DNA of 64,000 nt, from assembly GCA_035307565.1 (NCBI GenBank), contig DATGHZ010000013.1, positions 37,294 to 101,293 of the forward strand. The letters run 5' to 3'. The stretch is from a bacterium (GTDB taxonomy: Bacteria; Sysuimicrobiota; Sysuimicrobiia; Sysuimicrobiales; Segetimicrobiaceae). The position numbers and the translations under genes are program-made. Every line of letters begins with the position of its first letter. Within the stretch, counting starts at the first letter, position 1. The notes below the pieces were generated by a model, which saw nothing but the letters and a program-made list of their open reading frames with translations, had not been told where the DNA came from and ran no database searches. Below, piece after piece: positions 1-48,039 of this stretch.

Positions 1-899
1 GTAATCGCGTCCGGTTCCAGGCCGTGCGCCGCGAGCAGGTCGGCGTGCGTCCCGTACACATGCAGAAACGCGTCCTGAAGCGAAAACGCATCGATCCGGC
101 AGGCCGCGCGGGTATCCCAGGCGATCTCCTTGACCCGCGACCCGAGCGTGCCGTGCGGGACGGTTTCCTCGATCACGATGACGCGGCGGTGGCCGCGCAG
201 GGCGGCGGCAACGCCGTCCGCGTCGAGCGGCTTGACGGTGTGGACGGAGACCAGTGACACGCTCGCGCCGCGCTCCTCGATCCGTGCGGCGACGTCGGCA
301 GCAAGTTTCATGATGGGACCGTAGGCCATCACGCATACGTCCCGGCCCCGGCGAAGATACCGCAGGCGCCCGAAGACAAACGGCTCCGCCGCCCCGGACG
401 TGAGGTCGGGCTCGCCCGCCTTGCCGAGCCGAAGATACACGGGACCCCGCTCCCGGCCGACGCACCACAGCGTCGCCTCGCGCGTCTCCCCCGGATCGCA
501 GGGAACGAGCACCGTCATATTCGGAATCGCCGACGCGACGGCGATGTCTTCCTGAGCGTGGTGGGTGCCGCCGAGGGTGGAGTACGTGACGCCGCCGCCG
601 ATGCCGACGACCGACACCGGCAGATCCTGGTAACAGAGATCATCGCGGACGAACTCGAAGGGGCGGAACAAGGCAAACGTCGCGATGGTATACGCGATCG
701 GCCGCAGGCCGCGCAGCGCCATGCCGGCGCACATGCCGATCATGACCTGCTCCGCGACGCCCGTGTTGATGAACCGCGCCGGAAACTCGTCGCGGAATTT
801 CTGCATCGACCCGGCGGGCGAGATATCGGCCACGACGACGACGATCCGATCGTCGCGCCGCCCCGCCTCGTAAATCGTATTGGCGAAGGTATTCCGCAC
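1..899 (-). CDS. Transketolase, C-terminal (pyrimidine-binding) subunit; the 3' end runs off the window
   Basis: Absent from the ORF track because there is no stop inside the window. My reverse translation from GTG at 899 reads VRNTFANTIYEAG...FINTGVAEQVMIGMCAGMALRG...GGTHHAQEDIAV...PNMTVLVPCDPGE...VHTVKPLD, which matches the conserved blocks of split-transketolase B subunits. An in-frame TAA lies at 936-938 upstream, and GAGGTG sits 4 nt before the GTG. Confidence 0.85.
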   Translation of the reverse strand, partial: MRNTFANTIYEAGRRDDRIVVVVADISPAGSMQKFRDEFPARFINTGVAEQVMIGMCAGMALRGLRPIAYTIATFALFRPFEFVRDDLCYQDLPVSVVGIGGGVTYSTLGGTHHAQEDIAVASAIPNMTVLVPCDPGETREATLWCVGRERGPVYLRLGKAGEPDLTSGAAEPFVFGRLRYLRRGRDVCVMAYGPIMKLAADVAARIEERGASVSLVSVHTVKPLDADGVAAALRGHRRVIVIEETVPHGTLGSRVKEIAWDTRAACRIDAFSLQDAFLHVYGTHADLLAAHGLEPDAI

Positions 900-961
900 C
901 CGCCACCTCGTCCGCCGGTGATGCCGACATTTCGGTTATGCGGAGGGCCGGCTCCTGCTCC

Positions 962-1615
962 TCACACGAACGTCCAGTAATAGTCGCCGGTGTAGCCCGC
1001 CTCCGCGAACACCCCGCGCCATCCCTCGGGATAGTCGTGGAATTTCGCGGTCAGGACCCATCCGAGAAAGAGACCGCGTTCGTCGGCCGTGCGGTACGAA
1101 TCCACCTGCACGTAGCCCCGGCCGGGGGCCACCCGCTCGATCTCCCGAAGGGCGCGGATCGCGTCCGGCCGTTCGAGGTTGTGGATCGTATTGATCGAGA
1201 TCACGGCCTGGAAACTCTCGTCCGGGAAGGGCAGGGAGACGGCGTTCCCGAGGTGCAGCCGTCCCACCACGTCGGGCTCACAGTGCTTGAGCGCGTATTC
1301 GGAGATGTCGAGGCCGAAGGCTTCGAGTCCCGGACAGACTTTCATCAGATCTTTGACGAGAAATCCCTTCGCCGCGCCGACATCCAGCACGCGGTCCCCC
1401 GGCCGCAGGCCGAAATGCCGGACCATGTCTTCGGCGACCGGTATCCAGCGACCGTCATAGCGGTATCCGCCGTACCCGTACTCCCGGGCCCCGTCAAAAT
1501 ACGCCTGGCCGTACTGGCGCGCGATCTTGATGACTTCGGGGCTTTTGGCAGCGGCGCGGGCGGCGACGTTCCGGGTCGCGGCGGGCAGTTTGCTCAACAG
1601 GTTGATCTCCCGCAC
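962..1615 (-). CDS. Class I SAM-dependent methyltransferase
   Basis: ORF 962..1693. The VLDVGAAKGFLVKDL motif (SAM-binding motif I, GxGxG-like) is followed by LDISEYAL and FQAVISINTIHNL. I trimmed the start to GTG 1615 because the upstream gene stops at 1623. Confidence 0.8.
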   Translation of the reverse strand: MREINLLSKLPAATRNVAARAAAKSPEVIKIARQYGQAYFDGAREYGYGGYRYDGRWIPVAEDMVRHFGLRPGDRVLDVGAAKGFLVKDLMKVCPGLEAFGLDISEYALKHCEPDVVGRLHLGNAVSLPFPDESFQAVISINTIHNLERPDAIRALREIERVAPGRGYVQVDSYRTADERGLFLGWVLTAKFHDYPEGWRGVFAEAGYTGDYYWTFV

Positions 1616-1622
1616 GGCCGGC

Positions 1623-2510
1623 TCAGCGCGCCGGCGCGCCGTCCGCTGTTTCCGCGCGCACGGTGCGCCGCAGCCCCTCTTCCAGCGGCACATAATGGAA
1701 GGCCGGAAAGGCCTTCACGCAGGCCGTCACGTCGAAATGCCGGTGCACGATCGGACTCTGGCGCGGCGTCCCCCGGATCACCGCGGGCCGGGAGGCGAGG
1801 CGGGCGACGAGCTCGGCGGCCCGCCGGAACGAAACTGAAGACCCGGTGGCGACGTTCAGTACGCCGCGGCTCCGGTGCGCGAGCGTCAGGCCGACGATCG
1901 ACCCGACGTCCTCGATCCAGACGTGGTCGCGCTGCTCCTCTCCCTCGCCGAAGAGCACGATCGGCTCGCCGCCGGCCGCGAGACGCCGGAAGCGGTTCGG
2001 TCCGTAGCTGTTGTGGGGATCACCGGGGCCGTACAGGAGACTGGGCCGCAGGACGGCAAGCGGTGCTTTGAGGGCGGCCGACAGCATCACCTCGCGCGCC
2101 AGATGCATGACCCCGTGCAGGCTCGACGGCTGGGCGCAGGAGGTCTCAGAGACGAGACCGTCGCCGTCGGCGTAGACCGCGTCCGAACTGATGTAGACGA
2201 CGTGGGCCACCGGTGCGGCCGCAAACGCGTCCGCCCACGCCTCCGCCATCCTGAGATTCTGCGTGACATGAGCCGCCGTGCGCGCGGGCGCCACCGCCGA
2301 GACCAAGACCACGCTGTCCGAGGGCCGCAGCAGTGCGGCGAGTGAGCGGCCGGCCCCCGCATCGAGCAGGTCGAGCTCCCGCCGGGTCACGGCGAGGGAC
2401 GGGACGCCGTCCGCGGCGAGCCGGCGCATGATGCTGCCGCCGACAAAGCCCCCCGCGCCCACAACCACGACGCGCTCCGGGCTGACCGGCGTCCGGAGAT
2501 GCTCCAGCAC
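1623..2510 (-). CDS. NAD-dependent epimerase/dehydratase (SDR family)
   Basis: C-terminal 295 aa of ORF 1623..2942. Contains the VVVVGAGGFVGGSI Rossmann motif and YISSDAVY...HGVMHLAREV (a YxxxK-like region). GTG 2510 overlaps the upstream TAG by 1 nt. The longer N-terminal extension is Arg/Gly-rich junk that overlaps the dehydrogenase gene. Confidence 0.8.
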   Translation of the reverse strand: MLEHLRTPVSPERVVVVGAGGFVGGSIMRRLAADGVPSLAVTRRELDLLDAGAGRSLAALLRPSDSVVLVSAVAPARTAAHVTQNLRMAEAWADAFAAAPVAHVVYISSDAVYADGDGLVSETSCAQPSSLHGVMHLAREVMLSAALKAPLAVLRPSLLYGPGDPHNSYGPNRFRRLAAGGEPIVLFGEGEEQRDHVWIEDVGSIVGLTLAHRSRGVLNVATGSSVSFRRAAELVARLASRPAVIRGTPRQSPIVHRHFDVTACVKAFPAFHYVPLEEGLRRTVRAETADGAPAR

Positions 2511-3805
2511 TAGGGGCGCCGCTCCGCCGCCGGGGCGGGCGGCGCGCCGAGTGTGGAGTACTCCAACCCCGCCGCCGCGGCGGCCCCGGGGTCCAGCACC
2601 CCGTACGGATCCAGCACCGTACGCCCCGCCATGACCGCCGCAAGCGCGGGCGCGGACAGGTCGCGAAACTCCGGCCACGGCGTCATGATCGCGACGGCGT
2701 CGGCGCCCGCGGCCGCGGCCAGTGCGGAAGGCGCCGCGACCGCCCGCGGGTGCTCCACCTCGGCCGCCGGCACCACGGGGTCGTACACGCGCACACGCCA
2801 CGGCGTGAGATGGCGAAGCAGGGCGAGCGCCGGCGAGTTCTTGGTGGACCGGGTGTTCTGTTTGTACGCGAGCCCGAGGATGCCGATGACGGCGTCGGGG
2901 CGGGCCGCGAGGACGCCGGCGTGCAGCATGCGGAGCGCCCAATCACTGCGCCGCTCGCTGCTTCGCAGCATCGCGCGGATCGGGGCGGCCTCGGCGCCGG
3001 CGGCCCCGGCCAGTCCCAGCACCGTGGCGAGGTCTCGCTCGATGTTGCCGCCCGACAGCCCCAGTCCGGGCACCACGTAGGCGTCCGGGCCGATCCGCCG
3101 GTCAAGACGCAGCGCCGGTACGATTTCCTGCCAGTCCGCGCCGATGCGCTCACTCAGTTCGGCAAGCATGTTGGTCACCGTAACTGAGGCGGCCAAATAA
3201 CAATTGATCGCGATCTTGGCGAGCTCGGCGCTTTCGTACCGGACCTGCACAATCGGGCAGCCGAACTCCCGCAGGAACAGCGCGTACGGCTCCGGGAGCG
3301 CGCTGCGGGGCTCCGCCATGCCAACGATGAACCGTTCCGGCCGGGTCGCGCGTTCCACGGCCCGGCCGAACACGAGGGTCTCGACCTGACAAAACAGCCG
3401 GTCGGACGCAAACGGGACCGCACGCGTAAACCCCGGCGGCACCTGCGAGAGTACGACGAGCGCACGGACGGCCGGCGCGGCCGCGATGACGGCGGCGATC
3501 AGCCCGGCAATCTCTCGCAGATCGCTGGCGCCGGTGCCGTCGGTCGGCACGTCGGCGGCGATATAGATGATGTCACAGCGAGCCAGGGCCGCCGCATCCC
3601 GGCTCCACGCGAGGCGGGCACCGTGGGCGTCGAGCAGCGCCTCGAGGCCGGGCTCCGCGACCGGCAGGCGGCCGCCGGCGATGGCATCCACCCTGCCGGC
3701 GTCCGGATCCCATCCGACGACCGGCGCCCCGGTCGAGGCCGCCGCCGCGGCGGAGACCAGCCCGAGGTGGGTGAGGCCCGCAAAGCCGACGGCCGGGGGC
3801 CTCAC
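2510..3805 (-). CDS. Nucleotide-sugar (UDP-glucose/GDP-mannose family) dehydrogenase
   Basis: ORF 2510..3805, 431 aa. Has an N-terminal VGFAGLTHLGLVSA Rossmann motif, a central helical domain and a C-terminal GLAYKQNTRSTKNSPA motif typical of UDPG_MGDP dehydrogenases. Its GTG start forms a GTGA overlap with the upstream stop. Confidence 0.85.
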   Translation of the reverse strand: MRPPAVGFAGLTHLGLVSAAAAASTGAPVVGWDPDAGRVDAIAGGRLPVAEPGLEALLDAHGARLAWSRDAAALARCDIIYIAADVPTDGTGASDLREIAGLIAAVIAAAPAVRALVVLSQVPPGFTRAVPFASDRLFCQVETLVFGRAVERATRPERFIVGMAEPRSALPEPYALFLREFGCPIVQVRYESAELAKIAINCYLAASVTVTNMLAELSERIGADWQEIVPALRLDRRIGPDAYVVPGLGLSGGNIERDLATVLGLAGAAGAEAAPIRAMLRSSERRSDWALRMLHAGVLAARPDAVIGILGLAYKQNTRSTKNSPALALLRHLTPWRVRVYDPVVPAAEVEHPRAVAAPSALAAAAGADAVAIMTPWPEFRDLSAPALAAVMAGRTVLDPYGVLDPGAAAAAGLEYSTLGAPPAPAAERRP

Positions 3806-4728
3806 GACGGCACCGCCTGTGCGATGCTCCGTCCCAGTTCCAGCAACATCTCGTTGAGGAGCACGTCATTCCACAGATTGCCGCCGCCCCGCCGGCAGAG
3901 GGTCTTGAAGTACTCGTACTCCTCCGCCCAGGTCGGATCCGGACCGGCGACTTCCGTGGTTGCTTCCTCGGGGCGGCCGCTCGGAAACCGCCGGGTACGC
4001 ACGGTAAACGTCGAGGGGCCCCACTTGCACAGGCCCCGGATGTGGGCGCTGCCGCGCTCGCCGTAGACGTCGGCGGAGAACTCATTGCGCCAGCTGATGA
4101 GCGACGCCTCCATCTGCAGCGTGGGGGTCCCGGCGGCGCCGAAGACGGCGTGGTCGATCGCCCGGTTCTCGAAACGGCTGGCCGACCACAGGACGAACGG
4201 ACGCGGGAGCATTTCGAACCAGTACAGCGCCATGTCGAGGAGGTGCGAGCCGAGATCCGCCAGCACACCCAGACCGCGGTCGCGCCAGGAGGACGCGCGA
4301 ACGTCCCGCGCGGTGCCGTTCCCGTAGAAGAGACGGCAGCAATAAAGACGGCCGAGCGCGCCGGATGCAACGGTCTCGCGCATGCGCTTCACATGCGGTT
4401 CGAACCGGTGATTGTACGCGGTGTAGCAGGCCGCGCCCGATGCGGCGGCCAGCCGCGACAGTTCGTCCAACGCGCGCGAGTCCGCCGCGACGAGCGGTTT
4501 CTCCACCAGCACGTGTTTTCCGTGGCCGAGCAGGTACCGCAGTAATTCGAATTTCGCATCGTCCGGCGCACAGACGAGCGCCGCATCGTACGTTGGCAGC
4601 GGCACGTCGGCCACGGCGCGATACTGGGCGCCGGCGGCGACCGGATCGGCCGTTGCGGCGACGTCACCGCCGGCCGCGGCCAGCCGCTTGCGTCCCTGCA
4701 CGCCGAGCCCGGCGACGAGCACCTTCAC
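3802..4728 (-). CDS. Gfo/Idh/MocA family oxidoreductase (WbpB-like position next to the dehydrogenase)
   Basis: ORF 3802..4782. VKVLVAGLGVQGRKR...HVLVEKPL...YNHRFEP are the family's hallmark motifs. GTG 4728 forms a GTGA overlap with the upstream stop at 4725-4727. Confidence 0.85.
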   Translation of the reverse strand: MKVLVAGLGVQGRKRLAAAGGDVAATADPVAAGAQYRAVADVPLPTYDAALVCAPDDAKFELLRYLLGHGKHVLVEKPLVAADSRALDELSRLAAASGAACYTAYNHRFEPHVKRMRETVASGALGRLYCCRLFYGNGTARDVRASSWRDRGLGVLADLGSHLLDMALYWFEMLPRPFVLWSASRFENRAIDHAVFGAAGTPTLQMEASLISWRNEFSADVYGERGSAHIRGLCKWGPSTFTVRTRRFPSGRPEEATTEVAGPDPTWAEEYEYFKTLCRRGGGNLWNDVLLNEMLLELGRSIAQAVPS

Positions 4729-6302
4729 CGCGACGCAGCCTCGGAACCGTGCCGTTCGTATCGGACGCGCCGCTCCATCCATTCGGTCTTGCGGCCGACG
4801 TCGAGCGGCTTGATCGGAACGTTGCCCTGCACTTCACATTCCAGGGCGGCGGCGAAGTTGCCGAGGATCGACGCGACGACGTCGGAGCCGTCCGTAATCA
4901 TCGAGAGCGTCGCGTAGGCCAGCAGCGCGTCTCCGGCGCCGACCGCGTCGACCACACGCTCGGCGAAACTGTCGATCACGAAGAACGAGCGAAGATTCTC
5001 GGGCTCGCTGTCCCGGCACGTCAGCACGCCGCGATCGCCCAGTTTGAGGATCAGCACCCTACAGGCCGCATCCGCGTGCAGCCGCGCGGCCAGCGGCCGC
5101 ACGCCGGTGTCCTGGTCGGCCAGGGCAAACCGGGCTTCCCGCTCGTTGGGCGTGATGAGATCGAACCCCTTAAACTCCAGAATGTTGCCCCACCGGCTGG
5201 CCACCTGGCTGTCCGCGACGCGAAAGACGCCCGGCGGAATGGCGCCGATGAGGTCCGGAATTGTCCGGCGGCTGAAGATCCCGTGCCGGAAATCGCTGAA
5301 CACGACCGCGCGCGCGTCGGTCGCTTCGATCTGCCGGGCGATGGTCTCGAGCGTCCGGTCCGAGATGGTTCGATTGTCCACGGTGTCGACTTTCAGCAGC
5401 CGGTAGTCGCCGCACAGAAACGTGTTCTTGTGGGTGGTCGGGCGGGTACGGTCGGTGACCGGCTCGCACCGGACGTCGTGTTTGCGCAGTTCCGCCAAGA
5501 CGAAGTCGGCGAGCGGGTCCTCCCCGAGCACCGTCGAGAAGATCACCCGGGCGCCGGCCGCGGCCAGATGCAGCGCCACGATCGCCGCGCCGCCAACGTA
5601 ATCGATGCGGTTGTCCAGCCGCACGCTGGACGTCGGCGTCTTCAGCATCCCGCCGAGCAGCGTCGTATGCGAGAGGCTGTCCACGATCGTATCGCCCACG
5701 ACGTGGACCGGCACGCCTTCGAACTTCGAGGCGGCCTCGCGGAGCCGGTCGAAGCTGACATCCTCGGCCTCCATGAGCGTCAACAGTTTCTCGACCGACA
5801 GATCCGGCGGGCCCGTTTCGATGATCGCCGAGGACGAGTACACGATGTCGCCGGGGGTGAAGAGGATGTCGCCGCCGTACCCCTGGACGACCTCCATCTC
5901 CTCCTTGGTCTTTGGATGCACGCCGCCGTCGACGTATTCGTAGCCCTTGGCGAAGAAATCCGGCTGTAGCGCCGCGAGCGTACGCAGCGGCGTGGGGTGG
6001 CCGTCGATGATGACGTAGTCGACCATCTCCAGCGCCGCGAGGTTGAACGCCCGAAGATCCTGCGGCACGAACGGCCGGTACGGGGTCTTCGTGATGTGGG
6101 CGTCGGATGTGATGCTGACAACAAGCACGTCGGCCTTGCTCTTCGCATACAGCAGGTGGCGGATGTGCCCGGGGTGCACCAGATCGAAGACCCCGTGGCA
6201 CATCGCGACCGTCCGAGCCCGCGGCCGCGGCCCGATGAGACGAGAGAGTTCGTCGACCGTCTTGATCTTGTGGCGGTAGCCCCCGGCAAGCGTCTCTATC
6301 AT
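4725..6302 (-). CDS. Bifunctional sugar-phosphate nucleotidyltransferase (N-terminal) / PfkB carbohydrate kinase (C-terminal), HldE-like with swapped domain order
   Basis: C-terminal 525 aa of ORF 4725..7085. The N-terminal region AMCHGVFDLVHPGHIRHLLYAK carries the HxGH cytidylyltransferase-fold motif. The C-terminal region has DAVGAGDALLAYATL (PfkB signature 2) and VVGDTIVD. ATG 6302 forms an ATGA overlap with the upstream stop. Confidence 0.8.
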   Translation of the reverse strand: MIETLAGGYRHKIKTVDELSRLIGPRPRARTVAMCHGVFDLVHPGHIRHLLYAKSKADVLVVSITSDAHITKTPYRPFVPQDLRAFNLAALEMVDYVIIDGHPTPLRTLAALQPDFFAKGYEYVDGGVHPKTKEEMEVVQGYGGDILFTPGDIVYSSSAIIETGPPDLSVEKLLTLMEAEDVSFDRLREAASKFEGVPVHVVGDTIVDSLSHTTLLGGMLKTPTSSVRLDNRIDYVGGAAIVALHLAAAGARVIFSTVLGEDPLADFVLAELRKHDVRCEPVTDRTRPTTHKNTFLCGDYRLLKVDTVDNRTISDRTLETIARQIEATDARAVVFSDFRHGIFSRRTIPDLIGAIPPGVFRVADSQVASRWGNILEFKGFDLITPNEREARFALADQDTGVRPLAARLHADAACRVLILKLGDRGVLTCRDSEPENLRSFFVIDSFAERVVDAVGAGDALLAYATLSMITDGSDVVASILGNFAAALECEVQGNVPIKPLDVGRKTEWMERRVRYERHGSEAASR

Positions 6303-7333
6303 GGCCGCGTCTCCGTTCCGAGGAATTCGAACCACGACCGCGTCGCGTGCGCGATCGACTCCGGATCCCACAGCGGCGCGTCGCGCCAGTACTCGATGTC
6401 GGCCATCATGCGCGCCACGCCCTGTTCGAACGGTACGCGCGGCCGCCAGCCCAAGTCGCCGGCGATCTTCGAAATGTCGGCCCACGTGACGTCCGGTTCC
6501 CCGGGACGTTTCGGCACGTGGACCACCGGACCGCCCAACAACTCGACCAGGCGGTTGACGGACTGCGGATCTCCGCCGCCGACGTTCCAGACCCGTCCGG
6601 CGTGAGGGCTCTCCGCGGCCATGAGGAAGGCCTCCGCGACGTCGCGCACGTACACGAAGTCGCGGCGCTGGGTGCCGTCGCCGACGACCGTAAACGGCCG
6701 TCCTTCGAGCTTCTGCTTGAAGAACACGCCGAAGACCGCGCCGTACGCGCCCGTCGTCCGGACCCGCGGGCCGTACGCGTTGAAGATGCGGATCGAATTC
6801 ACCGGCAGGCGGTAGATCTTCGCCCAGTGCAGCGCCGCCTGCTCGCCGAGATGCTTCGACAGCGCGTAGGGGTGCAGAGGATTGATCGGGTGGTCCTCGC
6901 GCGTCGGCGTCGCGGCGAGACCATAGCACGACGAGGAGGCGGCGTAGACGACCTTGGAGACGCCGGCGTGCCGGGCGGCCTCGAGGACGCGCACGGTGCC
7001 CTGCACGTTGGTCTCGAGATACTCGGCGGGCCGTTCGATGGACGGCACGATGTCCCCGATTCCGGCGAAGTGAAAAACGTAGCACGCTTGCGCGAACAGC
7101 GAGCTCCCGGGCTGGAGCCGCCGCACATCCGTGTGTTCAACCTCCAGTTCGGCGCCGGGACCGTGGTGCCTGAGGTTATTCTCCCGGCCCCCGACCAGGT
7201 TGTCGATCACCCGGACGCGGAAGCCGTGTTCCAGCAGCAGATCCACCATATGGCTGCCGATGAAGCCGGCGCCGCCGGTGACCACCGCCACCGGCCTCTC
7301 CACCCCGTCCCGTCCGTTGCGGGCGCCAGTCAT
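6299..7333 (-). CDS. NAD-dependent epimerase/dehydratase (extended SDR)
   Basis: ORF 6299..7333. Contains VVTGGAGFIGSHMV, ASSSCYG and YALSKHLGE (the S...YxxxK catalytic set). Confidence 0.85.
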   Translation of the reverse strand: MTGARNGRDGVERPVAVVTGGAGFIGSHMVDLLLEHGFRVRVIDNLVGGRENNLRHHGPGAELEVEHTDVRRLQPGSSLFAQACYVFHFAGIGDIVPSIERPAEYLETNVQGTVRVLEAARHAGVSKVVYAASSSCYGLAATPTREDHPINPLHPYALSKHLGEQAALHWAKIYRLPVNSIRIFNAYGPRVRTTGAYGAVFGVFFKQKLEGRPFTVVGDGTQRRDFVYVRDVAEAFLMAAESPHAGRVWNVGGGDPQSVNRLVELLGGPVVHVPKRPGEPDVTWADISKIAGDLGWRPRVPFEQGVARMMADIEYWRDAPLWDPESIAHATRSWFEFLGTETRP

Positions 7334-8334: not shown

Positions 8335-8370
8335 CGGCGGCCCCCCACGACGCTGGTTCACAGCATCCTG

Positions 8371-9525: not shown

Positions 9526-9530
9526 GCCGG

Positions 9531-10325
9531 CTACATCATCCGGTAGCGCTGGCCCGGCCGCGCAATGATGGCGTCGGGCCGTTCGCGCAACAGCCGCGTG
9601 ACGAACCCCACCAGGTCGCGCGCCCGAAAACCTCTGCAGATCGTGTTGTCGATCCGGGCGAGGCGAAGCCGGCCGCCGGCGGCCAGCGCATCCTGTACTT
9701 GGAAATAGTCCCGCGGCAGAAAGAGATGACGGCGCAGGAACACCCGCGTGTCGCGCCCGTGCCGGTCCCGGCACGTGTACGTCTCGCGCTCCGCAGCTGG
9801 CCGCAGGTAGAGATCCGGCGCGACCATCTCCTCCACATGGTGAATCAGCGTGCAGCAGTCCATCGTGATGCCCATCATCACGACCCAGCCGTCGTACTCG
9901 ACCAGAAGGCCGAAGGGGCTGCGGGCCGAGCACGGCGTCTCGTCGAGATGATGGAACCGCAGCAGGTCGTCGGCCAGGTCCCCGCGTGCCGCGGCGGAGT
10001 GCGTCGGATGGAGGCTGCGCCGCGTCGCGTGCTCCGTCCGGAACAGCTCGGTCAGGATCCCCACGTTGGACGGTGTCCGCAGCTCGTCGAACACCGGCGC
10101 CGCGGGCTTGACGTACCGCCACGACATCGTGGGGAGCATGAGCGTGCCGGGGCTCATGTAGTCCAGGAACGTGTCGAGCACCGCGCGGGCGTCGTGGCCC
10201 TCCTGGACCATCGTCTTGAAGGCGCTGTGCACCAGCAGGACGCCGTCCCGTGGAATGCCGAGCCGCTCGAGGGCGCGCCCGACGGCGGCGTCGTGCCGGC
10301 GCGGCCGGGCGTCACTTGTGGACAA
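9531..10325 (-). CDS. AAC(3)-family (aminoglycoside 3-N-acetyltransferase-like) acetyltransferase
   Basis: ORF 9531..10325. GVLLVHSAFKTM...TLMLPTMSW...SLHPTHSAAARG...CTLIHHVEE matches the Antibiotic_NAT family blocks. The only available start upstream of these blocks is TTG 10325, which overlaps the carbamoyltransferase stop by 14 nt. Confidence 0.7.
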   Translation of the reverse strand: MSTSDARPRRHDAAVGRALERLGIPRDGVLLVHSAFKTMVQEGHDARAVLDTFLDYMSPGTLMLPTMSWRYVKPAAPVFDELRTPSNVGILTELFRTEHATRRSLHPTHSAAARGDLADDLLRFHHLDETPCSARSPFGLLVEYDGWVVMMGITMDCCTLIHHVEEMVAPDLYLRPAAERETYTCRDRHGRDTRVFLRRHLFLPRDYFQVQDALAAGGRLRLARIDNTICRGFRARDLVGFVTRLLRERPDAIIARPGQRYRMM

Positions 10326-11928
10326 GGAAGTTCCCGATCACGAGCGCGTCCAATCCACACCCGTAAAACGTCATGAGCGCGTCCCGGGGCGATTCGATGA
10401 TGGGCTGGCCTTTCAAGTTGAAGCTCGTGTTGAGGATCACCGGGACGCCGGTCTCGTTCGCGTACCGCCGGATCATCTCGTAGTAGATCTCGTTGTCGGA
10501 GCTGCGCACGGTCTGGACCCTCGCCGTGCCGTCGACGTGGACGACGGCCGCGATCGTCGGCGCGCGCTCGGGGATCGCGTCGAGCGTGAAGGTCATGTAC
10601 GGGAAATCGGGCCGTCCGTTGACGGCGAACCAGTCTCCCGCCGCCTCCTGCAGCAGCGACGGCGCGAACGGCCGGAACTCCTCGCGAAATTTGATGCGGG
10701 CGTTGACCCGGTCCCGCATCGCCTGTGACGCGCAACTCGCCACGATTGAGCGATTACCGAGCGCGCGCGCCCCGGCCTCGGACCGTCCCTGAAACCACCC
10801 GAGGATCTTCCCGTCGGCCAGCAGGCAGGCGCCGGTCGCGGCGGGATCCTCAAGTTCCTCGAAGCGGCAGCCGTTGGCCTCGAGCTCGTGGCGGATGTCC
10901 GCGTCCGAGTAGCAGGAGCCAAGGTACGCGTGCAGGAGCGGCCAGGGTGAGTCTCCGAGCATGACCGCGCCGAGATACGCGCACCCCAGCGCCAGGCCGC
11001 GGTCGGAGGAGACCGGCGAAACGTAGATGTGGTCGAACATGTCCGCGTAGAGCAGGCGCCGGTTGGCGGAGCAATTCAGCGCGAGCCCGCCGGCGTAGCA
11101 GAGATGACGGGTCGACGGCGCGTAGCCGCGCAGGTGCTCGGCGAGCCGCAGCACGCAGTCCTCGGTGACGGCCTGGGTGCTGCTTGCGACGTCGCGATGG
11201 AAATCGGTGATGGGCTCTTCGGGCCTGCGGTTCGGCACGCCCAGCACCTCCGCCAGTTTCGCAGCGTAGAGCGGCTCGAACGGGGACTTCACCGGCGGAT
11301 CCGCCCGGACGAAGGACCAATCGAACTCCCAGCCGTGCGGGGCCGGGCGAATGATCGGGCTCAGATCGACCGACGGCCGGCCGTACGGTGCGAGCCCCAT
11401 GACCTTGTACTCGTCCCCGTCGACGAACCCGAGGTAGTAGGTCATGAGCGTATAGAAATAGCCCAGCGAGCGCTCGGTGGGGATTTCCTCGAGGACCGTG
11501 ATGCCGTCACCGCGCGTCGCGTGCGCCAGCATGGCGCAGTCGCCGTCCCCGGTCGCGTCGAGGGAGAGGCACAGCGCCTCGCGGTGGCCGGACCCGTAGA
11601 ACGCCGACGCCAGGTGCGCCATGTGATGGTGCACGCGTTCGATCCGGGGCGACGATCCAAAATTGTGGCGCAGATAGTCCCGCCACACCTCGTCAAACCT
11701 CGGATAGGAGGCGCCCGGGGTGACCACGAGATCGATGGCCCGGAAGTCGATGTTCGCAATCTTCAGACACGCCCGGATGGAGTAATACGGAAGGTAGCCG
11801 TACGCCGATTTGTTGCGAAGGTACCGCTCTTCTTCGCAGGCGGCGATAATGCGCCCGTTGACGGCGAGGGCGGCCGCCGGCTCATGCTGCCCCACCGTCA
11901 CGCCGCCGTGAAGCCCGAGGACGATCAT
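10312..11928 (-). CDS. Carbamoyltransferase (NodU/CmcH family)
   Basis: C-terminal 538 aa of ORF 10312..12126. MIVLGLHGG...AAACEEERYLRNK...VHHHMAHLASAF...GGLALNCSAN...GNRSIVA...FREEFRPFAPS...HVDGTARVQTV are all canonical NodU/CmcH blocks. Confidence 0.9.
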   Translation of the reverse strand: MIVLGLHGGVTVGQHEPAAALAVNGRIIAACEEERYLRNKSAYGYLPYYSIRACLKIANIDFRAIDLVVTPGASYPRFDEVWRDYLRHNFGSSPRIERVHHHMAHLASAFYGSGHREALCLSLDATGDGDCAMLAHATRGDGITVLEEIPTERSLGYFYTLMTYYLGFVDGDEYKVMGLAPYGRPSVDLSPIIRPAPHGWEFDWSFVRADPPVKSPFEPLYAAKLAEVLGVPNRRPEEPITDFHRDVASSTQAVTEDCVLRLAEHLRGYAPSTRHLCYAGGLALNCSANRRLLYADMFDHIYVSPVSSDRGLALGCAYLGAVMLGDSPWPLLHAYLGSCYSDADIRHELEANGCRFEELEDPAATGACLLADGKILGWFQGRSEAGARALGNRSIVASCASQAMRDRVNARIKFREEFRPFAPSLLQEAAGDWFAVNGRPDFPYMTFTLDAIPERAPTIAAVVHVDGTARVQTVRSSDNEIYYEMIRRYANETGVPVILNTSFNLKGQPIIESPRDALMTFYGCGLDALVIGNFLVHK

Positions 11929-11941
11929 GGACGGCGCGGCG

Positions 11942-12793
11942 TCACGACGCGACCTCCGCGAGCTCGGCGATCGCTTTCGCGTATTCCTCCTTGGTGGGTG
12001 ACCGGTAGTGCCAGATGGGCAGGTGCTCCATGAAGGAGACCCCGCGCCCCTTGACCGTTTTGCCGACCAGCATGAACGGTTTCTCTCGGGGACGCGCCCG
12101 AACGGCCGCGTAGACGGCGGCCGCATCGTGGCCGTTCACCTCGACGCTCTCCCAGCCGAACGCGCGCAACTTGTCGGACACCGGGTAGAACGCGGGATGC
12201 GTCAGGCTCATGCGGTCGAGGCCTGAGATATCGTTGAGGTCCAAGAAGCCGACGAGGTTGCGGAGCCCAAGGTTCGCGGCCATCATCACCGCTTCCCAGG
12301 TCGAGCCCTCCATGAACTCGCCGTCGGACAGCAGCACGTAGATCGTGGCATCCGAGTGCTTGAGCGTCTCCGCGTAGCTCATGCCGACCGCCAGGCCCAG
12401 GCCGTGGCCGAGCGACCCGGTCGACGCCGCGATGCCCGGCACGCCGAAATCGGGATGCGCGCCCAGCCGGCCGTCGACGGTGCAGTACCGGTCGAGGTCC
12501 GCGGCGGTCAGCACGCCGAGCCGTTCCAGGATCACGTACTGAGCCATGCAGCCGTGGCCCTTCGACATCAAGAACACGTCCCGGAACGCGCCGGCATCGC
12601 CGGGCCCCGGCCGCATGAGCCCGGTGTAGATCACGTCGGCCATTTCCAGACACGAGAACGCCGGGGCGACGTGGAGCGCCGTGACCCGCTGCGAAATATC
12701 CAGTATCCGGCGCCGGTAGGCGAGACACCGCCGCCGGGAGGCGGCCGCGCTGAAAGCCCCGGTGACAACGCCGGCGGTGACCTCTGTCTTCAT
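11942..12793 (-). CDS. Transketolase, N-terminal (ThDP-binding) subunit
   Basis: C-terminal 283 aa of ORF 11942..13237. Contains SKGHGCMAQYVIL, GSLGHGLGLAVGM and VLLSDGEFMEGSTWEA (the GDG-type ThDP motif). ATG 12793 forms an ATGA overlap with the upstream stop. Confidence 0.85.
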   Translation of the reverse strand: MKTEVTAGVVTGAFSAAASRRRCLAYRRRILDISQRVTALHVAPAFSCLEMADVIYTGLMRPGPGDAGAFRDVFLMSKGHGCMAQYVILERLGVLTAADLDRYCTVDGRLGAHPDFGVPGIAASTGSLGHGLGLAVGMSYAETLKHSDATIYVLLSDGEFMEGSTWEAVMMAANLGLRNLVGFLDLNDISGLDRMSLTHPAFYPVSDKLRAFGWESVEVNGHDAAAVYAAVRARPREKPFMLVGKTVKGRGVSFMEHLPIWHYRSPTKEEYAKAIAELAEVAS

Positions 12794-13788
12794 GCCCGCA
12801 GCCGATAGTCCATCGGCCAGTCCCGCAGCTGATCGATGTACTTGCGGCCCCACGCCACCATCTCGGCCAGTCCGTCCGTCCAGCCGATCTGCGGCTCCCA
12901 CGCGACGTCGCGCTTGATCGCGCTGGAGTCCAGCCAGTACCGCGAGTCTTGTCCGAGGCGGTCCCCGGTCATCTCGCAGAGCTGGTCGAAGGGCATCCGA
13001 AGCGCTTCGGCGGTGAGTTCGACGACGCGGCGGATCGACGTGGGCTCCTTGGGGCCGGCGTTGTACACCGTGCCCACCGGCGCGCGCTCCGCCACCAGGT
13101 GAATGGCGCGGGCGAGATCCCGCGCGTGGATGTACGACTTTTCCGCCCGGCCGCCGCCGTGCAGCGGGAGCCGCCGGCCGGTGAGCCCGCAGACGACGGC
13201 CTTCGGGATCACGCGGTGCAGGAGCTGCCCGGGACAATAGGCGTTGGACGGCCGGATGATGTTCATCGGGAACTTTAGCACGCGGTGGATGGCGATCAGG
13301 TGCAGGTCGAACGCCGCCTTGGACACCGCGTACGGGCTCGTGGGCTTGATGGGCGTCTCCTCGCGGGCGGCGAAGTCCACGGAGCCGTAGAGTTCGGACG
13401 TCCCGATCTGGATAAACCGCCGCAGATAGTCGCGCGCCATCAGCTCTTCCGTCAAGTGCGAGAGCGCCATCGTGTTGGTCTCGTAAAAACGCCAGGACTT
13501 CTTCCAGGAGACCGCGCCCTCGCCTTGAGCAGCGTAGTTGACGATGACGTCGGGACGCTCGCGATCGAGCACCTCCAAGACCGAATCCATGTCGTAATTG
13601 AGATGGTAGGCGTGGTACTCATATCGCGGCTGGCGGTCGATGTTGAGCGAGAACGGCTCGGGCCGCAGGGGGTTCCGCCCGATGCCGATGACCTTGCGCG
13701 ACTCGGCATGGTTGAGCAGATAGAACGCGGTGTGCACGCCGAACGACCCGCCGGCGCCGAGGATGGCGTATGTTTTCAGCTCCGTCAT
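12790..13788 (-). CDS. NDP-sugar 4,6-dehydratase-like SDR
   Basis: ORF 12790..13878 trimmed to ATG 13788 (ATGA overlap). Contains ILGAGGSFGVH, TSELYGS (compare TDEVYG of RfbB), SPYAVSKAAFD and RPSNAYCPGQ. Confidence 0.7.
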   Translation of the reverse strand: MTELKTYAILGAGGSFGVHTAFYLLNHAESRKVIGIGRNPLRPEPFSLNIDRQPRYEYHAYHLNYDMDSVLEVLDRERPDVIVNYAAQGEGAVSWKKSWRFYETNTMALSHLTEELMARDYLRRFIQIGTSELYGSVDFAAREETPIKPTSPYAVSKAAFDLHLIAIHRVLKFPMNIIRPSNAYCPGQLLHRVIPKAVVCGLTGRRLPLHGGGRAEKSYIHARDLARAIHLVAERAPVGTVYNAGPKEPTSIRRVVELTAEALRMPFDQLCEMTGDRLGQDSRYWLDSSAIKRDVAWEPQIGWTDGLAEMVAWGRKYIDQLRDWPMDYRLRA

Positions 13789-14783
13789 GCGACGGCGAGC
13801 GCCTTCATGCGCCGGACGTTGACGTACCGGTCGTCGTCGAGGCTGTCCGGCAGCCGGCCGGCCCTGAATGCCCGGCACACGTCGCGGACGGCGTCTTCCA
13901 CGGTTCGCTTCGGCGCGTACCCGAGCACGCGGCGAATCTTGTCGGAATTGATGTGATACGTGCGGGGGTCATCGGACGGGGTCGTTTCAATCCTGATGTC
14001 CGGCCGGTCGGGATATTCCTGCCCCACGACGTCGCGAACGATCTCCGTGATACGGGCGATCGTGAGGTTCTGATACCCGATGTTGAAGGTCTCCCCCGCG
14101 ATCTTCTCCGCGGGCGCCTCGATCATCAGCTGGTACGCCTCCGCCATATCCTGGATGTGGAGGTTGGGCCGGACCTGGGAGCCTCCGAACACCGTGATCA
14201 CGCCCCGGTTGACCGCGTGGTTCGTGAGGATGTTGACCGACAGATCGAACCGCATGCGCGGACTGTACCCGCACACCGTCGCGGGCCTGATCGTCACGCA
14301 GGTGAACCCGGAGGCCTGGTGCCTGAAGAGCAGCGGTTCGCACAGTCCCTTGTATTTGTTGTAGAGCGTCAGCGGGACGAGCGGGTGCTCTTCGGTCACG
14401 TCGGGCGCGTCCGACACCCCGTACACCGAACTCGACGAGCAGTAGACGAACCGCTTGACCTCGGCGTCCCGCGCGGCGACGACCATCGGTTCGAAGCATT
14501 CGAAATTGATCGTACGGCTGAACCGCTCGTCGAGCTCAAAACTCGGATCGTTGGAGATGCAGGCGAGATGCAGCACGACGTCCATGCCGCGGAACGCCCG
14601 GCCCAGGCGTTCGGTGTCGCGGATGTCGCCCTCGATCACGTTTAATCGCGGATGGCGCGGGAGTCCGTCGCGGCCGAAGTACAGGACATCGTACACGGTC
14701 ACCGCGTAGCCGCATGACAGCAGATGCGGAACGAGCACACAGCCGACGTAGCCGGCCCCGCCCGTGATGAGCACGTTCTGCAT
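13785..14783 (-). CDS. NAD-dependent epimerase/dehydratase (SDR)
   Basis: ORF 13785..14801. Contains MQNVLITGGAGYVGC, CSSSSVYG and YNKYKGLCE. I prefer ATG 14783 over the track's TTG 14801. Confidence 0.8.
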   Translation of the reverse strand: MQNVLITGGAGYVGCVLVPHLLSCGYAVTVYDVLYFGRDGLPRHPRLNVIEGDIRDTERLGRAFRGMDVVLHLACISNDPSFELDERFSRTINFECFEPMVVAARDAEVKRFVYCSSSSVYGVSDAPDVTEEHPLVPLTLYNKYKGLCEPLLFRHQASGFTCVTIRPATVCGYSPRMRFDLSVNILTNHAVNRGVITVFGGSQVRPNLHIQDMAEAYQLMIEAPAEKIAGETFNIGYQNLTIARITEIVRDVVGQEYPDRPDIRIETTPSDDPRTYHINSDKIRRVLGYAPKRTVEDAVRDVCRAFRAGRLPDSLDDDRYVNVRRMKALAVA

Positions 14784-14838
14784 GCGTGAAATCACCGCCA
14801 ATCGGGTCTCGTGCGCCGCCGGAGCGCCGGCGTCGCGC

Positions 14839-15582
14839 CTACGCCGGTTCGGTTACGGCGTCCGTCGTGATCGAATAGCCCGCCGCCACCGCATCGCGCT
14901 GGAACATCTTGACCGTCTCGAGCGAGTAGTCGTCGAGGTCGCGTCCGACCAGCTCCAGTTTGGCCAGCACGTCGTGCGTCACCGTGATGATGTGGCAACC
15001 GATCTCATCGGCCTGGAAGACGTTCAGCAGCTCGCGCGGGCTCGCCCAGAGCAGCTCGGCCTTCGGCCGGGGCGCGATGACAGCGAGGGCCTCCCGCATC
15101 AGGGGGACCGGATCCACCCCGGTGTCGGCCACGCGCCCGGCGAACACCGAGACGATCGCCGGGGTCTCGCGCGCCAGGCACGCCGTCACCCGGCGGACCT
15201 GGTCGACCGTGAGGACCGCCGTCACGTTGAGCGCGATGCCCTCGCGCGCCAGATCCGTGATCACGGAGCCGGTGAACTCGCCGGCCGTGTTCGTGACCGG
15301 GATTTTCACGAAGACGTTGGGGCCCCACGACGCGATCGTCCGGGCCTGCCGCAGCATCGCCGGAAAGTCGTCGGCGAACACTTCGAACGAGACGGGCCGG
15401 TCGGGCACGGCGGCGAGGACGGTTCGTGCGAACGATTCGTAGTCGTCGACGCCGGCCTTTCTCATCAACGTCGGGTTGGTGGTGAAGCCTTTGATGAGGG
15501 GATTGCCGTAGAGGCGCATGATCCCCGCGAGATCGGCCCCGTCGGCAAAGATCTTGACGCGGAGACCTCGCAAGCGCTCCAT
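14839..15582 (-). CDS. Transaldolase-family enzyme (short TalC/FSA-like class)
   Basis: ORF 14839..15582. KIFADGADL...GFTTNPTLM...VFVKIPVT...NVTAVLT...SVFAGRVADTG is the class-3 transaldolase / fructose-6-P aldolase pattern, including the Schiff-base Lys in VKIP. Confidence 0.85.
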   Translation of the reverse strand: MERLRGLRVKIFADGADLAGIMRLYGNPLIKGFTTNPTLMRKAGVDDYESFARTVLAAVPDRPVSFEVFADDFPAMLRQARTIASWGPNVFVKIPVTNTAGEFTGSVITDLAREGIALNVTAVLTVDQVRRVTACLARETPAIVSVFAGRVADTGVDPVPLMREALAVIAPRPKAELLWASPRELLNVFQADEIGCHIITVTHDVLAKLELVGRDLDDYSLETVKMFQRDAVAAGYSITTDAVTEPA

Positions 15583-15615
15583 ATCCCGCCCCCCGGCCTC
15601 CAGGATCGGGTGCGA

Positions 15616-16155
15616 CTACTGTGGGCCCGCGCTGACCGCCAGGATCCAGTCGACCGCGGCGGGCAGAGAATCCGTCACGAAATCGGGCGCCACCGGCTTC
15701 GGCTCATGGTAGCCTCGGTCGATGAAGACCGTTCGGCAGCCCGCACGGCGGCCCGCCTCCACGTCTTTCCATCGGTCTCCCACTATGACGCTCGAGGAAA
15801 GATCAATATCGAGGCGGCGTGCCGCGGCCACTAGCAGTCCAGGTTTCGGCTTTCGGCACCCGCAATCCTCCCAATCCGAGTGAGGACACATCTCGATCGC
15901 ATGGACGGGCAGCCATTCGCGGAGTTTCCTATGCATCGCTTCTACAGCAGCGATATCCACAAGACCAAGCGCAATATCGGGCTGGTTGGTCGCCACGACG
16001 ATCAAAAATCCGGCCGCGCGGAGGGCTCGGACGGCGTCCCGAACACCGGCCAACAGACGAAAATCCTCCAACTGCCGGGGCGCGTATGCCTTGCCGTGTC
16101 GTACCGCCGTGGCCGTCAGGACGCCATCGCGATCAAGAAATACGGCCTGTCGCAT
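15616..16155 (-). CDS. gmhB: D-glycero-D-manno-heptose 1,7-bisphosphate phosphatase-like HAD-IIIA phosphatase
   Basis: ORF 15616..16188. Contains AVFLDRDGVL (the DxDGT/V nucleophile motif), VVATNQP, CxCRKPKPG and GDRWKDVEAG. I prefer ATG 16155, which is preceded by GAGGG. Confidence 0.8.
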   Translation of the reverse strand: MRQAVFLDRDGVLTATAVRHGKAYAPRQLEDFRLLAGVRDAVRALRAAGFLIVVATNQPDIALGLVDIAAVEAMHRKLREWLPVHAIEMCPHSDWEDCGCRKPKPGLLVAAARRLDIDLSSSVIVGDRWKDVEAGRRAGCRTVFIDRGYHEPKPVAPDFVTDSLPAAVDWILAVSAGPQ

Positions 16156-18121: not shown

Positions 18122-18154
18122 CTCTACGCGTGATCGCCGGGGCGGCGGATCCAA

Positions 18155-18955: not shown

Positions 18956-18968
18956 AGAAAGATCGCTC

Positions 18969-19832: not shown

Positions 19833-19912
19833 TGGCCTGCAATGTACGATAACGCTTCGAGGCTCTCCTCCGCCCGAGGCGGTGTCACGATCGAAGACCG
19901 TGCACAGGGGAA

Positions 19913-24297: not shown

Positions 24298-24487
24298 TGC
24301 CGCGGGCGTTACGGTCTCCGTCGTGGGTCGATACCGAAACGTCGAACCCGCCGTTACTACGGTGCACGGCCGGTCGAACCCTTTCGGAGGGACTCAGGCC
24401 GGTGTCACGAATGTAAGAGGCGTTCCACACGACCGGGGCGGAGGCCGTCGACTACCCGCCAACAATGCCATCCCACAGCGAGTCCGC

Positions 24488-47945: not shown

Positions 47946-48039
47946 CGGCCGGAGGCGGCGCGAACCGTCCGGCGGTCGGAAGACGCCGCGGCGCGTCGAT
48001 CGGGGCGCCGGCCGACGTCAGCGGCAGAGCGAAGCCCGC

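Follow-up and report, generated by a model that had tools for sequence, protein, structure and literature searches.

A richly decorated variant of a widespread sugar-nucleotide module in a probable O-antigen operon of a Segetimicrobiaceae bacterium

We analyzed a stretch of 64,000 nucleotides (hereafter "the window") from a bacterium of the family Segetimicrobiaceae, phylum Sysuimicrobiota (assembly GCA_035307565.1, contig DATGHZ010000013.1, positions 37,294 to 101,293), the first 16,155 positions of which had been read in an earlier note as an operon of 16 genes making a heavily decorated higher-carbon nucleotide sugar. On balance, we favor the view that these 16 genes are the middle part of a longer operon (at least 23 genes) supplying an unusual sugar for an O-antigen or other lipopolysaccharide (LPS)-type glycan exported by an ABC transporter. 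The most likely product is an ADP-heptose derived from sedoheptulose, which undergoes further tailoring and may gain two more carbons. Of the 16 genes, nine belong to a module whose gene order recurs in at least 80 genomes at species level, so that the enzyme set is not the rarity that it had been taken for.

An operon that extends beyond both ends of the 16-gene unit

The G+C content of the window (60–72%) makes raw lists of open reading frames (ORFs) noisy, and genes were called from a frame plot of third-codon-position GC together with Pfam and NCBIfam scans of the window proteins. The frame plot reveals a minus-strand coding series that is unbroken from position 1 to ~19900 and, combined with the scans, bears out the 16 genes within 1–16155, whose enzyme families, as previously listed, were all matched exactly. 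For gene calls and for the sequence beyond the window start, we used a public contig of 287,909 bp that contains the window (ENA ERZ27279682, k141_2285666, hereafter L001). According to the public calls, nine junctions are overlaps of 1–14 nt and the remainder are gaps of 5–62 nt; the tight, overlapping arrangement described in the earlier note therefore stands, but its upper limit of 37 nt for the gaps holds only if some alternative start codons are used. Neither promoter-like nor terminator-like sites are enriched over shuffled sequence (13 terminator-like sites were found versus 10.3 ± 3.0 expected). A single co-directional, translationally coupled sugar-nucleotide operon is supported, although not its restriction to 16 genes, since the unit is incomplete at both ends and the operon runs on past both sides. 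Upstream, on the same strand, wzm, wzt, and a gene encoding a 673-aa GT-A-like protein each abut or overlap their neighbor, and past the window start the public contig carries genes for a DegT aminotransferase, a 429-aa GT-A-like protein, a 640-aa AsnB-like amidotransferase, and a radical-SAM/SPASM protein. The operon thus spans at least from wzm (19919, the true start probably lying downstream of this position) to beyond the window start. The final gene of the 16, encoding the C-terminal half of a transketolase, itself extends past the window start, with ~7 last codons outside (the complete gene encodes 306 aa in L001), and DegT provides the source of the amino group that the acetyltransferase of the operon requires.

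The surroundings point to an O-antigen. The components of an ABC-transporter-dependent O-antigen system, namely Wzm, Wzt, a WecA-like transferase, and a WaaL-like protein, are all encoded in the window. The WaaL-like protein has nine transmembrane (TM)-like segments and a Wzy_C match of 27.5 bits (below the cut-off of 31.7), and the WecA-like Glycos_transf_4 protein (597 aa) is fused to a C-terminal CoA_binding_3 domain, which usually accompanies sugar-phosphate transferases of another family. The remainder of the window is also an LPS region, with genes for two ArnT-like proteins, one GT4 and three GT2 glycosyltransferases, an MsbA-like exporter, and two LptA-like proteins. The two GT-A-like proteins flanking the 16 genes, the 673-aa protein and the 429-aa protein encoded downstream of DegT (L001 17532–18821, plus strand), are paralogues with 43% identity over 351 aa; their family counts about 219 "hypothetical" members, which lack any Pfam domain. 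The 673-aa protein has no Pfam, NCBIfam, or PDB sequence match, and PDB sequence searches with the two proteins returned nothing or chance-level matches at E ≥ 0.46. Their shared domain was modeled by AlphaFold2 with a mean predicted local distance difference test score of 95.4, and its best PDB matches in Foldseek (SpsA, GnT-I, and WrtF; E ~ 1e-5) have low TM-scores of 0.25–0.39; we hold loosely, from this model, that both may be divergent GT-A glycosyltransferases. The C-terminus of the 673-aa protein consists of Trp/Arg-rich repeats of ~80 aa (WRYRRYLWQRVKER...). G+C content is ~60% over positions 16000–24000 (wzm, wzt, the divergent GT4 gene, an unassigned 558-aa ORF, and the WaaL-like gene) versus 65–72% elsewhere, a dip that could reflect membrane-protein composition or mean that the genes for export and assembly were acquired separately.

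A conserved module in at least six phyla

We scanned one genome per GTDB species using as query an alignment of the nucleotidyltransferase–kinase fusion encoded in the middle of the operon. The scan detected relatives of this fusion in at least 564 of the species representatives, and close relatives are also encoded in a great many metagenomic clusters. The best 80 of these at least 564 are full-length and 59–71% identical to it, and come from Alpha-, Beta-, Gamma-, and Deltaproteobacteria, Nitrospirota, Verrucomicrobiota, Methylomirabilota, and Omnitrophota, that is, at least six phyla; the carriers of the module include cultured strains of Skermanella, Azospirillum, and Magnetospirillum. Gene order was established by tblastn and ORF clustering over these best 80 loci, and the counts given here and below refer to the 47 with enough flanking sequence. 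A protein-database query with the fusion of a Coxiellaceae metagenome-assembled genome yielded environmental relatives only, of which L083 and L084 served as additional loci. The synteny search suggested in the earlier note thereby returned a core of 9–10 genes in the canonical order SIS – HAD phosphatase – transaldolase – SDR_a – SDR_d – fusion – GFO oxidoreductase – UGDH-like protein – SDR_e – methyltransferase (SDR, short-chain dehydrogenase/reductase; UGDH, UDP-glucose dehydrogenase), the SIS and UGDH-like genes not being present in every copy. Because this gene order is conserved in 80 other genomes, the arrangement is far beyond chance.

Core genes occur in 38 to 47 of the 47 loci (HAD phosphatase, 38; Methyltransf_11 methyltransferase, 42) and SIS in 34. 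An optional tail comprises SDR_b (27 loci), the transketolase N and C halves (22), a NUDIX hydrolase (17), DegT (14), and an acetyltransferase (7) or a carbamoyltransferase (1, and additionally in loci L024 and L084). The FkbM methyltransferase has a counterpart in one locus only (L030, Magnetospirillum sp. UT-4), and the TviC-like SDR_c has no orthologue in any of the 47. Homologues of wzm adjoin the module in 11 loci. In several relatives, a NusG/RfaH-like gene and a small helix-turn-helix gene lie directly upstream of SIS (L065 4903–5505, L083 5101–5604, and L084 5072–5593), which suggests dedicated antitermination control in those relatives; no NusG/RfaH-like gene was seen adjoining the window operon.

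Activation enzymes

The fusion enzyme carries its nucleotidyltransferase domain (residues 27–162) ahead of its kinase domain (191–505), the reverse of the order in HldE. The kinase domain matches PF00294 (E = 1e-19) and TIGR02198 (E = 8.5e-34; 117 bits versus a cut-off of 345) and contains the GAGD motif ("DAVGAGDA"), the nucleotidyltransferase domain matches PF01467 and TIGR02199 (rfaE domain II; E = 1.6e-26, 93 bits versus a cut-off of 181) and contains HPGH, and the whole protein scores 145 bits against the HldE equivalog NF008454, short of its cut-off of 521. The HAD phosphatase passes the subfamily models TIGR01656 and TIGR01662 and falls below two GmhB equivalog cut-offs (124 versus 178 bits for NF006506 and 83 versus 150 for the other); its motifs are DRDG, TNQ, CPH..CGCRKP, with the Zn-site cysteines, and GDRWKD. 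In place of this gene, the public gene caller reported a 104-aa ORF from the opposite strand, but the minus-strand ORF encodes the complete HAD-IIIA/GmhB motif set and is the one with orthologues in the relatives. The transaldolase is present in 38 loci at 57–76% identity. Because enzymes of HldE/GmhB-type activation are here preceded by a transaldolase, the higher-carbon sugar class proposed in the earlier note is the natural reading; the product itself we infer.

The SIS proteins of the relatives' modules have phosphoheptose isomerases as their only PDB matches, at a weak E = 4e-13. The nearest relatives of the window locus (L003, L006, L012, and L015) have no SIS gene in the stretch retrieved; L003, L012, and L015 carry wzm–wzt directly upstream, and the short contig of L006 does not include that region. 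About 30 kb from the operon, the window encodes a GHMP kinase whose gene overlaps that of a SIS_2-domain protein, and the two resemble a further set of heptose activation enzymes in the HddA/GmhA style. This SIS protein is not a displaced orthologue of the module SIS, as the two share only 35% identity over 77 aa.

Core tailoring enzymes

The UGDH-like protein aligns end to end with the UGDH of PDB entry 4a7p, placing GGNIERD opposite GGSCFPKD. The catalytic Cys is replaced by Asn, which is invariant in 64 of 64 orthologues, and the neighboring Lys by Arg, likewise in all 64; the score with TIGR03026 is 189.4, against a cut-off of 189.8. The protein had been listed as an NDP-sugar 6-dehydrogenase, but the thiohemiacetal/thioester half-reaction leading to a uronic acid is impossible without the catalytic Cys, making a uronic-acid-forming step unlikely, as judged from the alignment, and the canonical uronic-acid role of the gene was ruled out. 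It occurs in 45 loci and the GFO oxidoreductase, which has the EKP and D..GSH motifs and PDB relatives only at E ≥ 4e-11, in 44.

SDR_a, SDR_c, and SDR_d are classical SDRs. SDR_a (43 loci) has the motifs SSSSVYG and YNKYK, conserved in 70 orthologues, and SDR_d has ASSSCYG and PYALSK, present in 73, with GalE as best PDB match (E = 7e-46). SDR_b carries "GTSE(L/M)YG", the "TSE" signature of GDP-mannose dehydratases, in 28 orthologues. In SDR_e, H-G-x-M-H replaces Y-x-x-x-K, a substitution kept in 58 of 58 orthologues, and the best PDB match is MoeE5 (E = 3e-21). By sequence search, the transaldolase, SDR_d, the UGDH-like protein, the GFO oxidoreductase, and SDR_e have no more than distant relatives in the PDB. 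We also considered a diacetamido-uronic acid pathway of the WbpA/B/E/D type and rejected it: the dehydrogenase lacks its Cys, the acetyltransferase has the AAC(3) fold and not a left-handed β-helix, and the GFO/UGDH-like pair, found in 44–45 loci, has no obligate coupling to DegT, found in 14.

The transketolase branch and accessory genes

The transketolase halves score 194 (N) and 165 (C) bits against the equivalog NF004559 (cut-off 488), and transketolase and DXS models give the C half equal scores, both below cut-off. Thiamine diphosphate (ThDP)- and pyrimidine-binding Pfam domains are present across the two halves, which places the protein among ThDP enzymes, and the general ThDP-enzyme motifs are kept; the position equivalent to transketolase His461, read by eye and not from a computed alignment, is not conserved. 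Where present, the transketolase lies at the distal end of the module and not beside the transaldolase. Its halves are adjacent in relatives and ~11 kb apart in the window, separated by the insertion of a block (SDR_b, transketolase N half, carbamoyltransferase, acetyltransferase, FkbM, and SDR_c) between SDR_a and SDR_d.

The transketolase accompanies DegT in 13 of its 14 loci (Fisher p = 5e-5, uncorrected for phylogeny), six of the seven acetyltransferase loci have both, and so do all of the loci with carbamoyltransferase orthologues (L024, L037, and L084 only). From this co-occurrence, the transketolase product would be the substrate of the aminotransferase, the acetyl- and carbamoyltransferases acting afterwards. 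The usual target of NodU/CmcH/TobZ-type carbamoyltransferases is a primary alcohol, and a ketol adduct made by the transketolase fits both DegT and the carbamoyltransferase because it supplies a ketone as well as a primary alcohol. The acetyltransferase scores far below all cut-offs of the AAC(3) resistance models, and the N-terminal ~200 aa of the FkbM protein have no family assignment. The TviC-like SDR, the FkbM methyltransferase, and the AsnB-like enzyme, which lack counterparts in the relatives apart from the single FkbM locus, may act on a second sugar. The NUDIX hydrolase gene of the relatives stands beside the transketolase/DegT end (e.g., L036 18449–18982) and is absent from the window; the enzyme might hydrolyze or exchange the nucleotide on the sugar.

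Comparison with known systems

The core module apparently matches cbu0674–cbu0683 of Coxiella burnetii in gene order and in the reversed fusion, as judged from published descriptions and from a Coxiellaceae metagenome-assembled genome (L045) whose module has a fusion 60% identical to that of the window (a partial locus whose first gene is SDR_a and which contains no SIS). CBU0678 is an HldE paralogue with an "unconventional, reversed domain arrangement" that is essential for phase I LPS, its operon holds the SDR genes cbu0676 and cbu0677, and the phosphoheptose isomerase gene cbu0674 lies close by (PMC5843353). CBU_0673, CBU_0676, and CBU_0678–0682 were probably acquired jointly from Alphaproteobacteria (PMC5423948). 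CBU_0681 is a "conserved hypothetical" with only marginal similarity to RmlB (PMC3539893), which fits the atypical SDR_e, and CBU_0683 is a methyltransferase according to a 2026 preprint in which the precise role of CBU_0678 "remains unclear" (PMC13252051), a 2026 review agreeing in substance on CBU_0678 (PMC13552124). Both operons are located in an O-antigen region and have a nucleotidyltransferase-first fusion preceded by an isomerase gene (in the module's SIS-bearing copies) and two SDR genes; by position after the fusion, cbu0681 corresponds to SDR_e and cbu0683 to the methyltransferase of the window. By contrast, the published descriptions consulted here place no carbamoyltransferase, AAC(3)-like acetyltransferase, FkbM, or TviC-like SDR inside the C. 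burnetii operon.

With the ADP-heptose pathway of HldE, GmhA, and GmhB, the operon shares a PfkB kinase, an HxGH adenylyltransferase-type domain, an HAD-IIIA phosphatase with Zn-site cysteines, and SDR epimerases. It differs in the reversed domain order, in scores well below the equivalog cut-offs, in the dedicated transaldolase and six or more extra tailoring enzymes, and in belonging to an O-antigen rather than a core operon. The modified-heptose pathways of Campylobacter jejuni, Burkholderia pseudomallei (WcbK/WcbJ), and Yersinia (DmhA/DmhB) employ a 4,6-dehydratase, epimerases, reductases, and O-methyltransferases on GDP-α-heptose made by a GHMP kinase and HddC. SDR_b resembles them in its GMD/DmhA-type TSE signature; to our knowledge, these pathways include no transaldolase, transketolase, GFO/UGDH-like pair, or carbamoyltransferase. 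ThDP enzymes do occur inside other sugar-nucleotide clusters, where YerE (yersiniose) is acetolactate-synthase-like and AviB1/AviB2 (eurekanate) are like the E1 component of pyruvate dehydrogenase; the window enzyme shares this setting and, plausibly, C2 addition to a keto sugar, but is a split transketolase/DXS-like pair.

The lincosamide GDP-octose/lincosamine pathway offers a further parallel, at the level of families only. In that pathway, the kinase LmbP is an HddA-like GHMP kinase and LmbO an NTP_transferase-family guanylyltransferase, whereas the operon has a PfkB kinase and an HxGH (cytidylyltransferase-like) nucleotidyltransferase, the sole GHMP kinase of the window being encoded outside it. 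Both start with a transaldolase, continue with an isomerase/kinase/phosphatase/nucleotidyltransferase logic, and use a trio of SDR, UGDH-family (LmbL), and GFO-family (LmbZ/CcbZ) proteins followed by DegT (PMC4351081, PMC12945683). In the operon, however, the aminotransferase is optional, a transketolase, methyltransferases, and a carbamoyltransferase are added, and the destination is a Gram-negative surface glycan instead of an antibiotic. Comparison with characterized clusters, as recommended in the earlier note, uncovered none with a known product that is collinear with the operon, and literature searches on transaldolase/transketolase/carbamoyltransferase in O-antigens, octulose-8-phosphate clusters, and virenose plus sedoheptulose yielded no characterized equivalent. 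The bradyrhizose/caryophyllose cluster was dropped for want of a link: one report calls the bradyrhizose genes unknown and names an 11-gene cluster without details (PMC4743980).

A proposed pathway and its alternatives

We propose that the transaldolase raises the supply of sedoheptulose-7-phosphate, either boosting or creating this ketose phosphate, which a GmhA-type SIS would convert to heptose-7-phosphate. The PfkB domain would then phosphorylate O-1 to yield heptose-1,7-bisphosphate, the GmhB-like HAD enzyme would strip the distal phosphate to leave heptose-1-phosphate, and the HxGH domain, by its family, would form an ADP-type nucleotide heptose. In core tailoring, two classical SDRs may epimerize or oxidize this intermediate. 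The lincosamide analogy and the loss of the catalytic Cys lead us to expect a side-chain carbonyl or a deoxy-keto intermediate, with the GFO and Cys-less UGDH-like proteins acting jointly on the exocyclic side chain to produce a carbonyl, or to carry out an LmbZ/LmbL-like two-enzyme dehydration, but no uronic acid. The His/His SDR_e and the S-adenosylmethionine (SAM)-dependent methyltransferase would complete the core sugar. In decorated variants, the split transketolase could add a two-carbon ketol unit to the nucleotide-sugar carbonyl, DegT could aminate the new ketone, the AAC(3)-fold enzyme could N-acetylate it, and the NodU-type enzyme could carbamoylate the new primary hydroxyl, with SDR_b (as 4,6-dehydratase) and FkbM contributing deoxygenation and an additional methyl group. 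The two GT-A-like paralogues are candidate transferases for the sugar, and the polymer would be exported by Wzm/Wzt and ligated by the WaaL-like protein.

Several observations weigh against this scheme. The transaldolase is the sole enzyme that reaches an equivalog cut-off (TIGR02134), so that substrates are assigned from family membership only; the acceptor of the transketolase and the function given here to the GFO/UGDH-like pair are proposals, as is any site of methylation. The window operon contains no SIS isomerase gene, although 34 of 47 relatives have one inside the operon. The co-occurrence statistics are uncorrected for shared ancestry, and the order of these steps is made uncertain by the 8 of 22 transketolase loci that lack SDR_b and the 13 SDR_b loci that lack the transketolase. 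The near-universal dedicated transaldolase is equally well explained by a non-standard ketose phosphate, octulose-8-phosphate, as for LmbR. Finally, the presumed orthology with CBU0678 relies on published descriptions and L045, and the known LPS sugars of C. burnetii have no obvious need for the module.

If the operon is composite, the module makes a modest heptose derivative while the TviC-like SDR, FkbM, the AAC(3)-like acetyltransferase, the carbamoyltransferase, DegT, and the AsnB-like enzyme modify a separate, hexose-derived sugar within the same repeat unit, e.g., an acetamido-uronamide, and no single "heavily decorated" sugar exists. This is rather unlikely in our estimation. It would account for the near absence of SDR_c and FkbM from the relatives, for the inserted block that breaks the otherwise conserved SDR_a–SDR_d junction, for the AsnB-like gene downstream, and for the canonical UGDH, WecA-like initiating transferase, and several further glycosyltransferases encoded in the window. 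However, in other phyla DegT, the acetyltransferase, and the carbamoyltransferase turn up solely beside the module and the transketolase, which argues that they act on the module product, and the operon contains no second nucleotidyltransferase or mutase. Somewhat less probable still is an octose route, in which the transaldolase joins a C3 unit to ribose-5-phosphate and the resulting octulose-8-phosphate becomes an NDP-octose through the isomerase, kinase, phosphatase, and nucleotidyltransferase, followed by a 6,8-dehydration by the GFO/UGDH-like pair as in CcbZ/LmbL, and amination by DegT at C-6 to give a lincosamine-like 6-amino-6,8-dideoxy-octose that is then N-acetylated. The families match LmbR, LmbN, LmbK, LmbM, LmbL, LmbZ, and LmbS one for one (PMC4351081, PMC12945683), a dedicated transaldolase is kept in 38 of 47 loci even though sedoheptulose-7-phosphate is a common metabolite, the UGDH-like protein is not a classical dehydrogenase, and the module SIS is no more than a distant relative of GmhA. 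Yet this match stands at the family level, the PfkB/HldE-type kinase and HxGH-type nucleotidyltransferase differ from the families of LmbP and LmbO, and DegT is an accessory gene that tracks the transketolase and not the GFO/UGDH-like pair.

We regard as highly improbable that the transaldolase and the transketolase are simply helpers from the pentose phosphate pathway that feed sedoheptulose-7-phosphate, without any C–C remodeling of a sugar nucleotide. The transaldolase does exceed the cut-off of a model that NCBIfam labels just "transaldolase", and the transketolase halves keep general ThDP-enzyme motifs, but the transketolase is accessory, distal, and co-varies with DegT, and the split enzyme is far below the transketolase equivalog cut-offs with an equal DXS score. 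Its accessory, DegT-linked distribution led us to judge a mere pentose-phosphate function of the transketolase unlikely. The tailored heptose of an O-antigen-type glycan remains our preferred reading, and its most ambitious extension, a sugar of at least nine carbons built by an undescribed route on a nucleotide-sugar scaffold (a transaldolase-fed heptose or octose activated by the reversed HldE, provided with a side-chain carbonyl by the Cys-less UGDH-like enzyme and its GFO partner, elongated by the transketolase ketol, aminated, N-acetylated, and carbamoylated), is doubtful, and to our minds less probable than the octose route.

Gene content of the operon and other genes of the window

The coordinates of the operon genes and of the other features discussed are collected in Table 1. 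Three additional loci of the window are unrelated to the operon: a homocysteine S-methyltransferase–methylenetetrahydrofolate reductase fusion, a ThiS/MoaD–MoaE fusion, and a two-subunit 2-oxoacid:ferredoxin oxidoreductase.

Table 1. Operon genes, in the direction of transcription, followed by other features of the window
Feature	Position	Strand	Basis
wzm-like ABC-2 permease	18969..19919	-	Pfam ABC2_membrane E=5e-18; five TM-like hydrophobic windows
wzt-like ABC ATPase	18155..19054	-	Pfam ABC_tran E=7e-20; 0-nt gap to next gene
673-aa protein, predicted GT-A fold in N-terminal ~370 aa	16133..18154	-	AlphaFold2 and Foldseek
HAD-IIIA, GmhB-like sugar-bisphosphate phosphatase	15616..16155	-	TIGR01656 129 bits, above cut-off
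Short transaldolase	14839..15582	-	TIGR02134 353 bits (cut-off 282); Pfam TAL_FSA E=1e-39
SDR_a, classical epimerase/oxidoreductase-type, core	13785..14783	-	Pfam Epimerase
SDR_b, GDP-mannose-4,6-dehydratase-type, accessory	12790..13788	-	dTDP-glucose dehydratase model E=4e-49, below cut-off
Split transketolase, ThDP-binding N half, accessory	11942..12793	-	Pfam Transketolase_N E=1e-31
NodU/CmcH-type O-carbamoyltransferase, rare accessory	10312..11928	-	Pfam Carbam_trans_N and Carbam_trans_C
AAC(3)-fold (Antibiotic_NAT) N-acetyltransferase, accessory	9531..10325	-	PF02522 E=7.5e-43
FkbM-family methyltransferase, rare accessory	8371..9525	-	PF05050 and TIGR01444
SDR_c, TviC/WbpP-like 4-epimerase-type, window-specific	7330..8334	-	TviC model E=3e-57, below cut-off
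SDR_d, GalE/UXS-like classical SDR, core	6299..7333	-	Pfam Epimerase E=1.5e-59
HxGH nucleotidyltransferase–PfkB kinase fusion	4725..6302	-	Pfam CTP_transf_like, then PfkB
GFO/IDH/MocA oxidoreductase, core	3802..4728	-	Pfam
UGDH/GDP-mannose-dehydrogenase-family protein without catalytic Cys, core	2510..3805	-	Three Pfam domains, all present
SDR_e, atypical short SDR, core	1623..2510	-	Pfam Epimerase/RmlD_sub_bind
Class I SAM methyltransferase, Methyltransf_11, core	962..1615	-	Pfam
Split transketolase, pyrimidine-binding and C-terminal half	1..899	-	Pfam Transket_pyr and Transketolase_C
558-aa ORF	21083..22759
WaaL-like protein	23005..24297		Wzy_C
Canonical UGDH	24284..25822
WecA-like transferase	25838..27631	+	Glycos_transf_4, CoA_binding_3
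Homocysteine S-methyltransferase–methylenetetrahydrofolate reductase fusion	34734..36731	-
GHMP kinase	46953..47945	+
SIS_2-domain protein	47932..48711	+
ThiS/MoaD–MoaE fusion	50779..51474	+
2-oxoacid:ferredoxin oxidoreductase, two subunits	59113..61741	-

Conclusions

What the window carries is a richly decorated form of an LPS sugar module that is widespread and known genetically, though biochemically unsolved, and not a unique system; as the window copy is one decorated instance, its individual value is moderate. The core is among the more widespread sugar-nucleotide modules without an assigned product, and a Cys-less UGDH homologue, a His/His SDR, a reversed HldE, and a split transketolase tied to DegT point to reactions that have yet to be described for sugars of the cell surface. 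If the route to at least nine carbons were true, it would generate a nonose- or decose-type amino sugar without the NeuB-type condensation of phosphoenolpyruvate, in the O-antigens of hundreds of environmental species, and its core form would be the missing component behind the dependence of C. burnetii phase I LPS on cbu0678. The presence of the module in cultured, non-pathogenic Skermanella, Azospirillum, and Magnetospirillum makes the question of its product testable in these bacteria, without BSL-3 containment, and the module is apparently the same one whose loss turns virulent phase I C. burnetii into attenuated forms.

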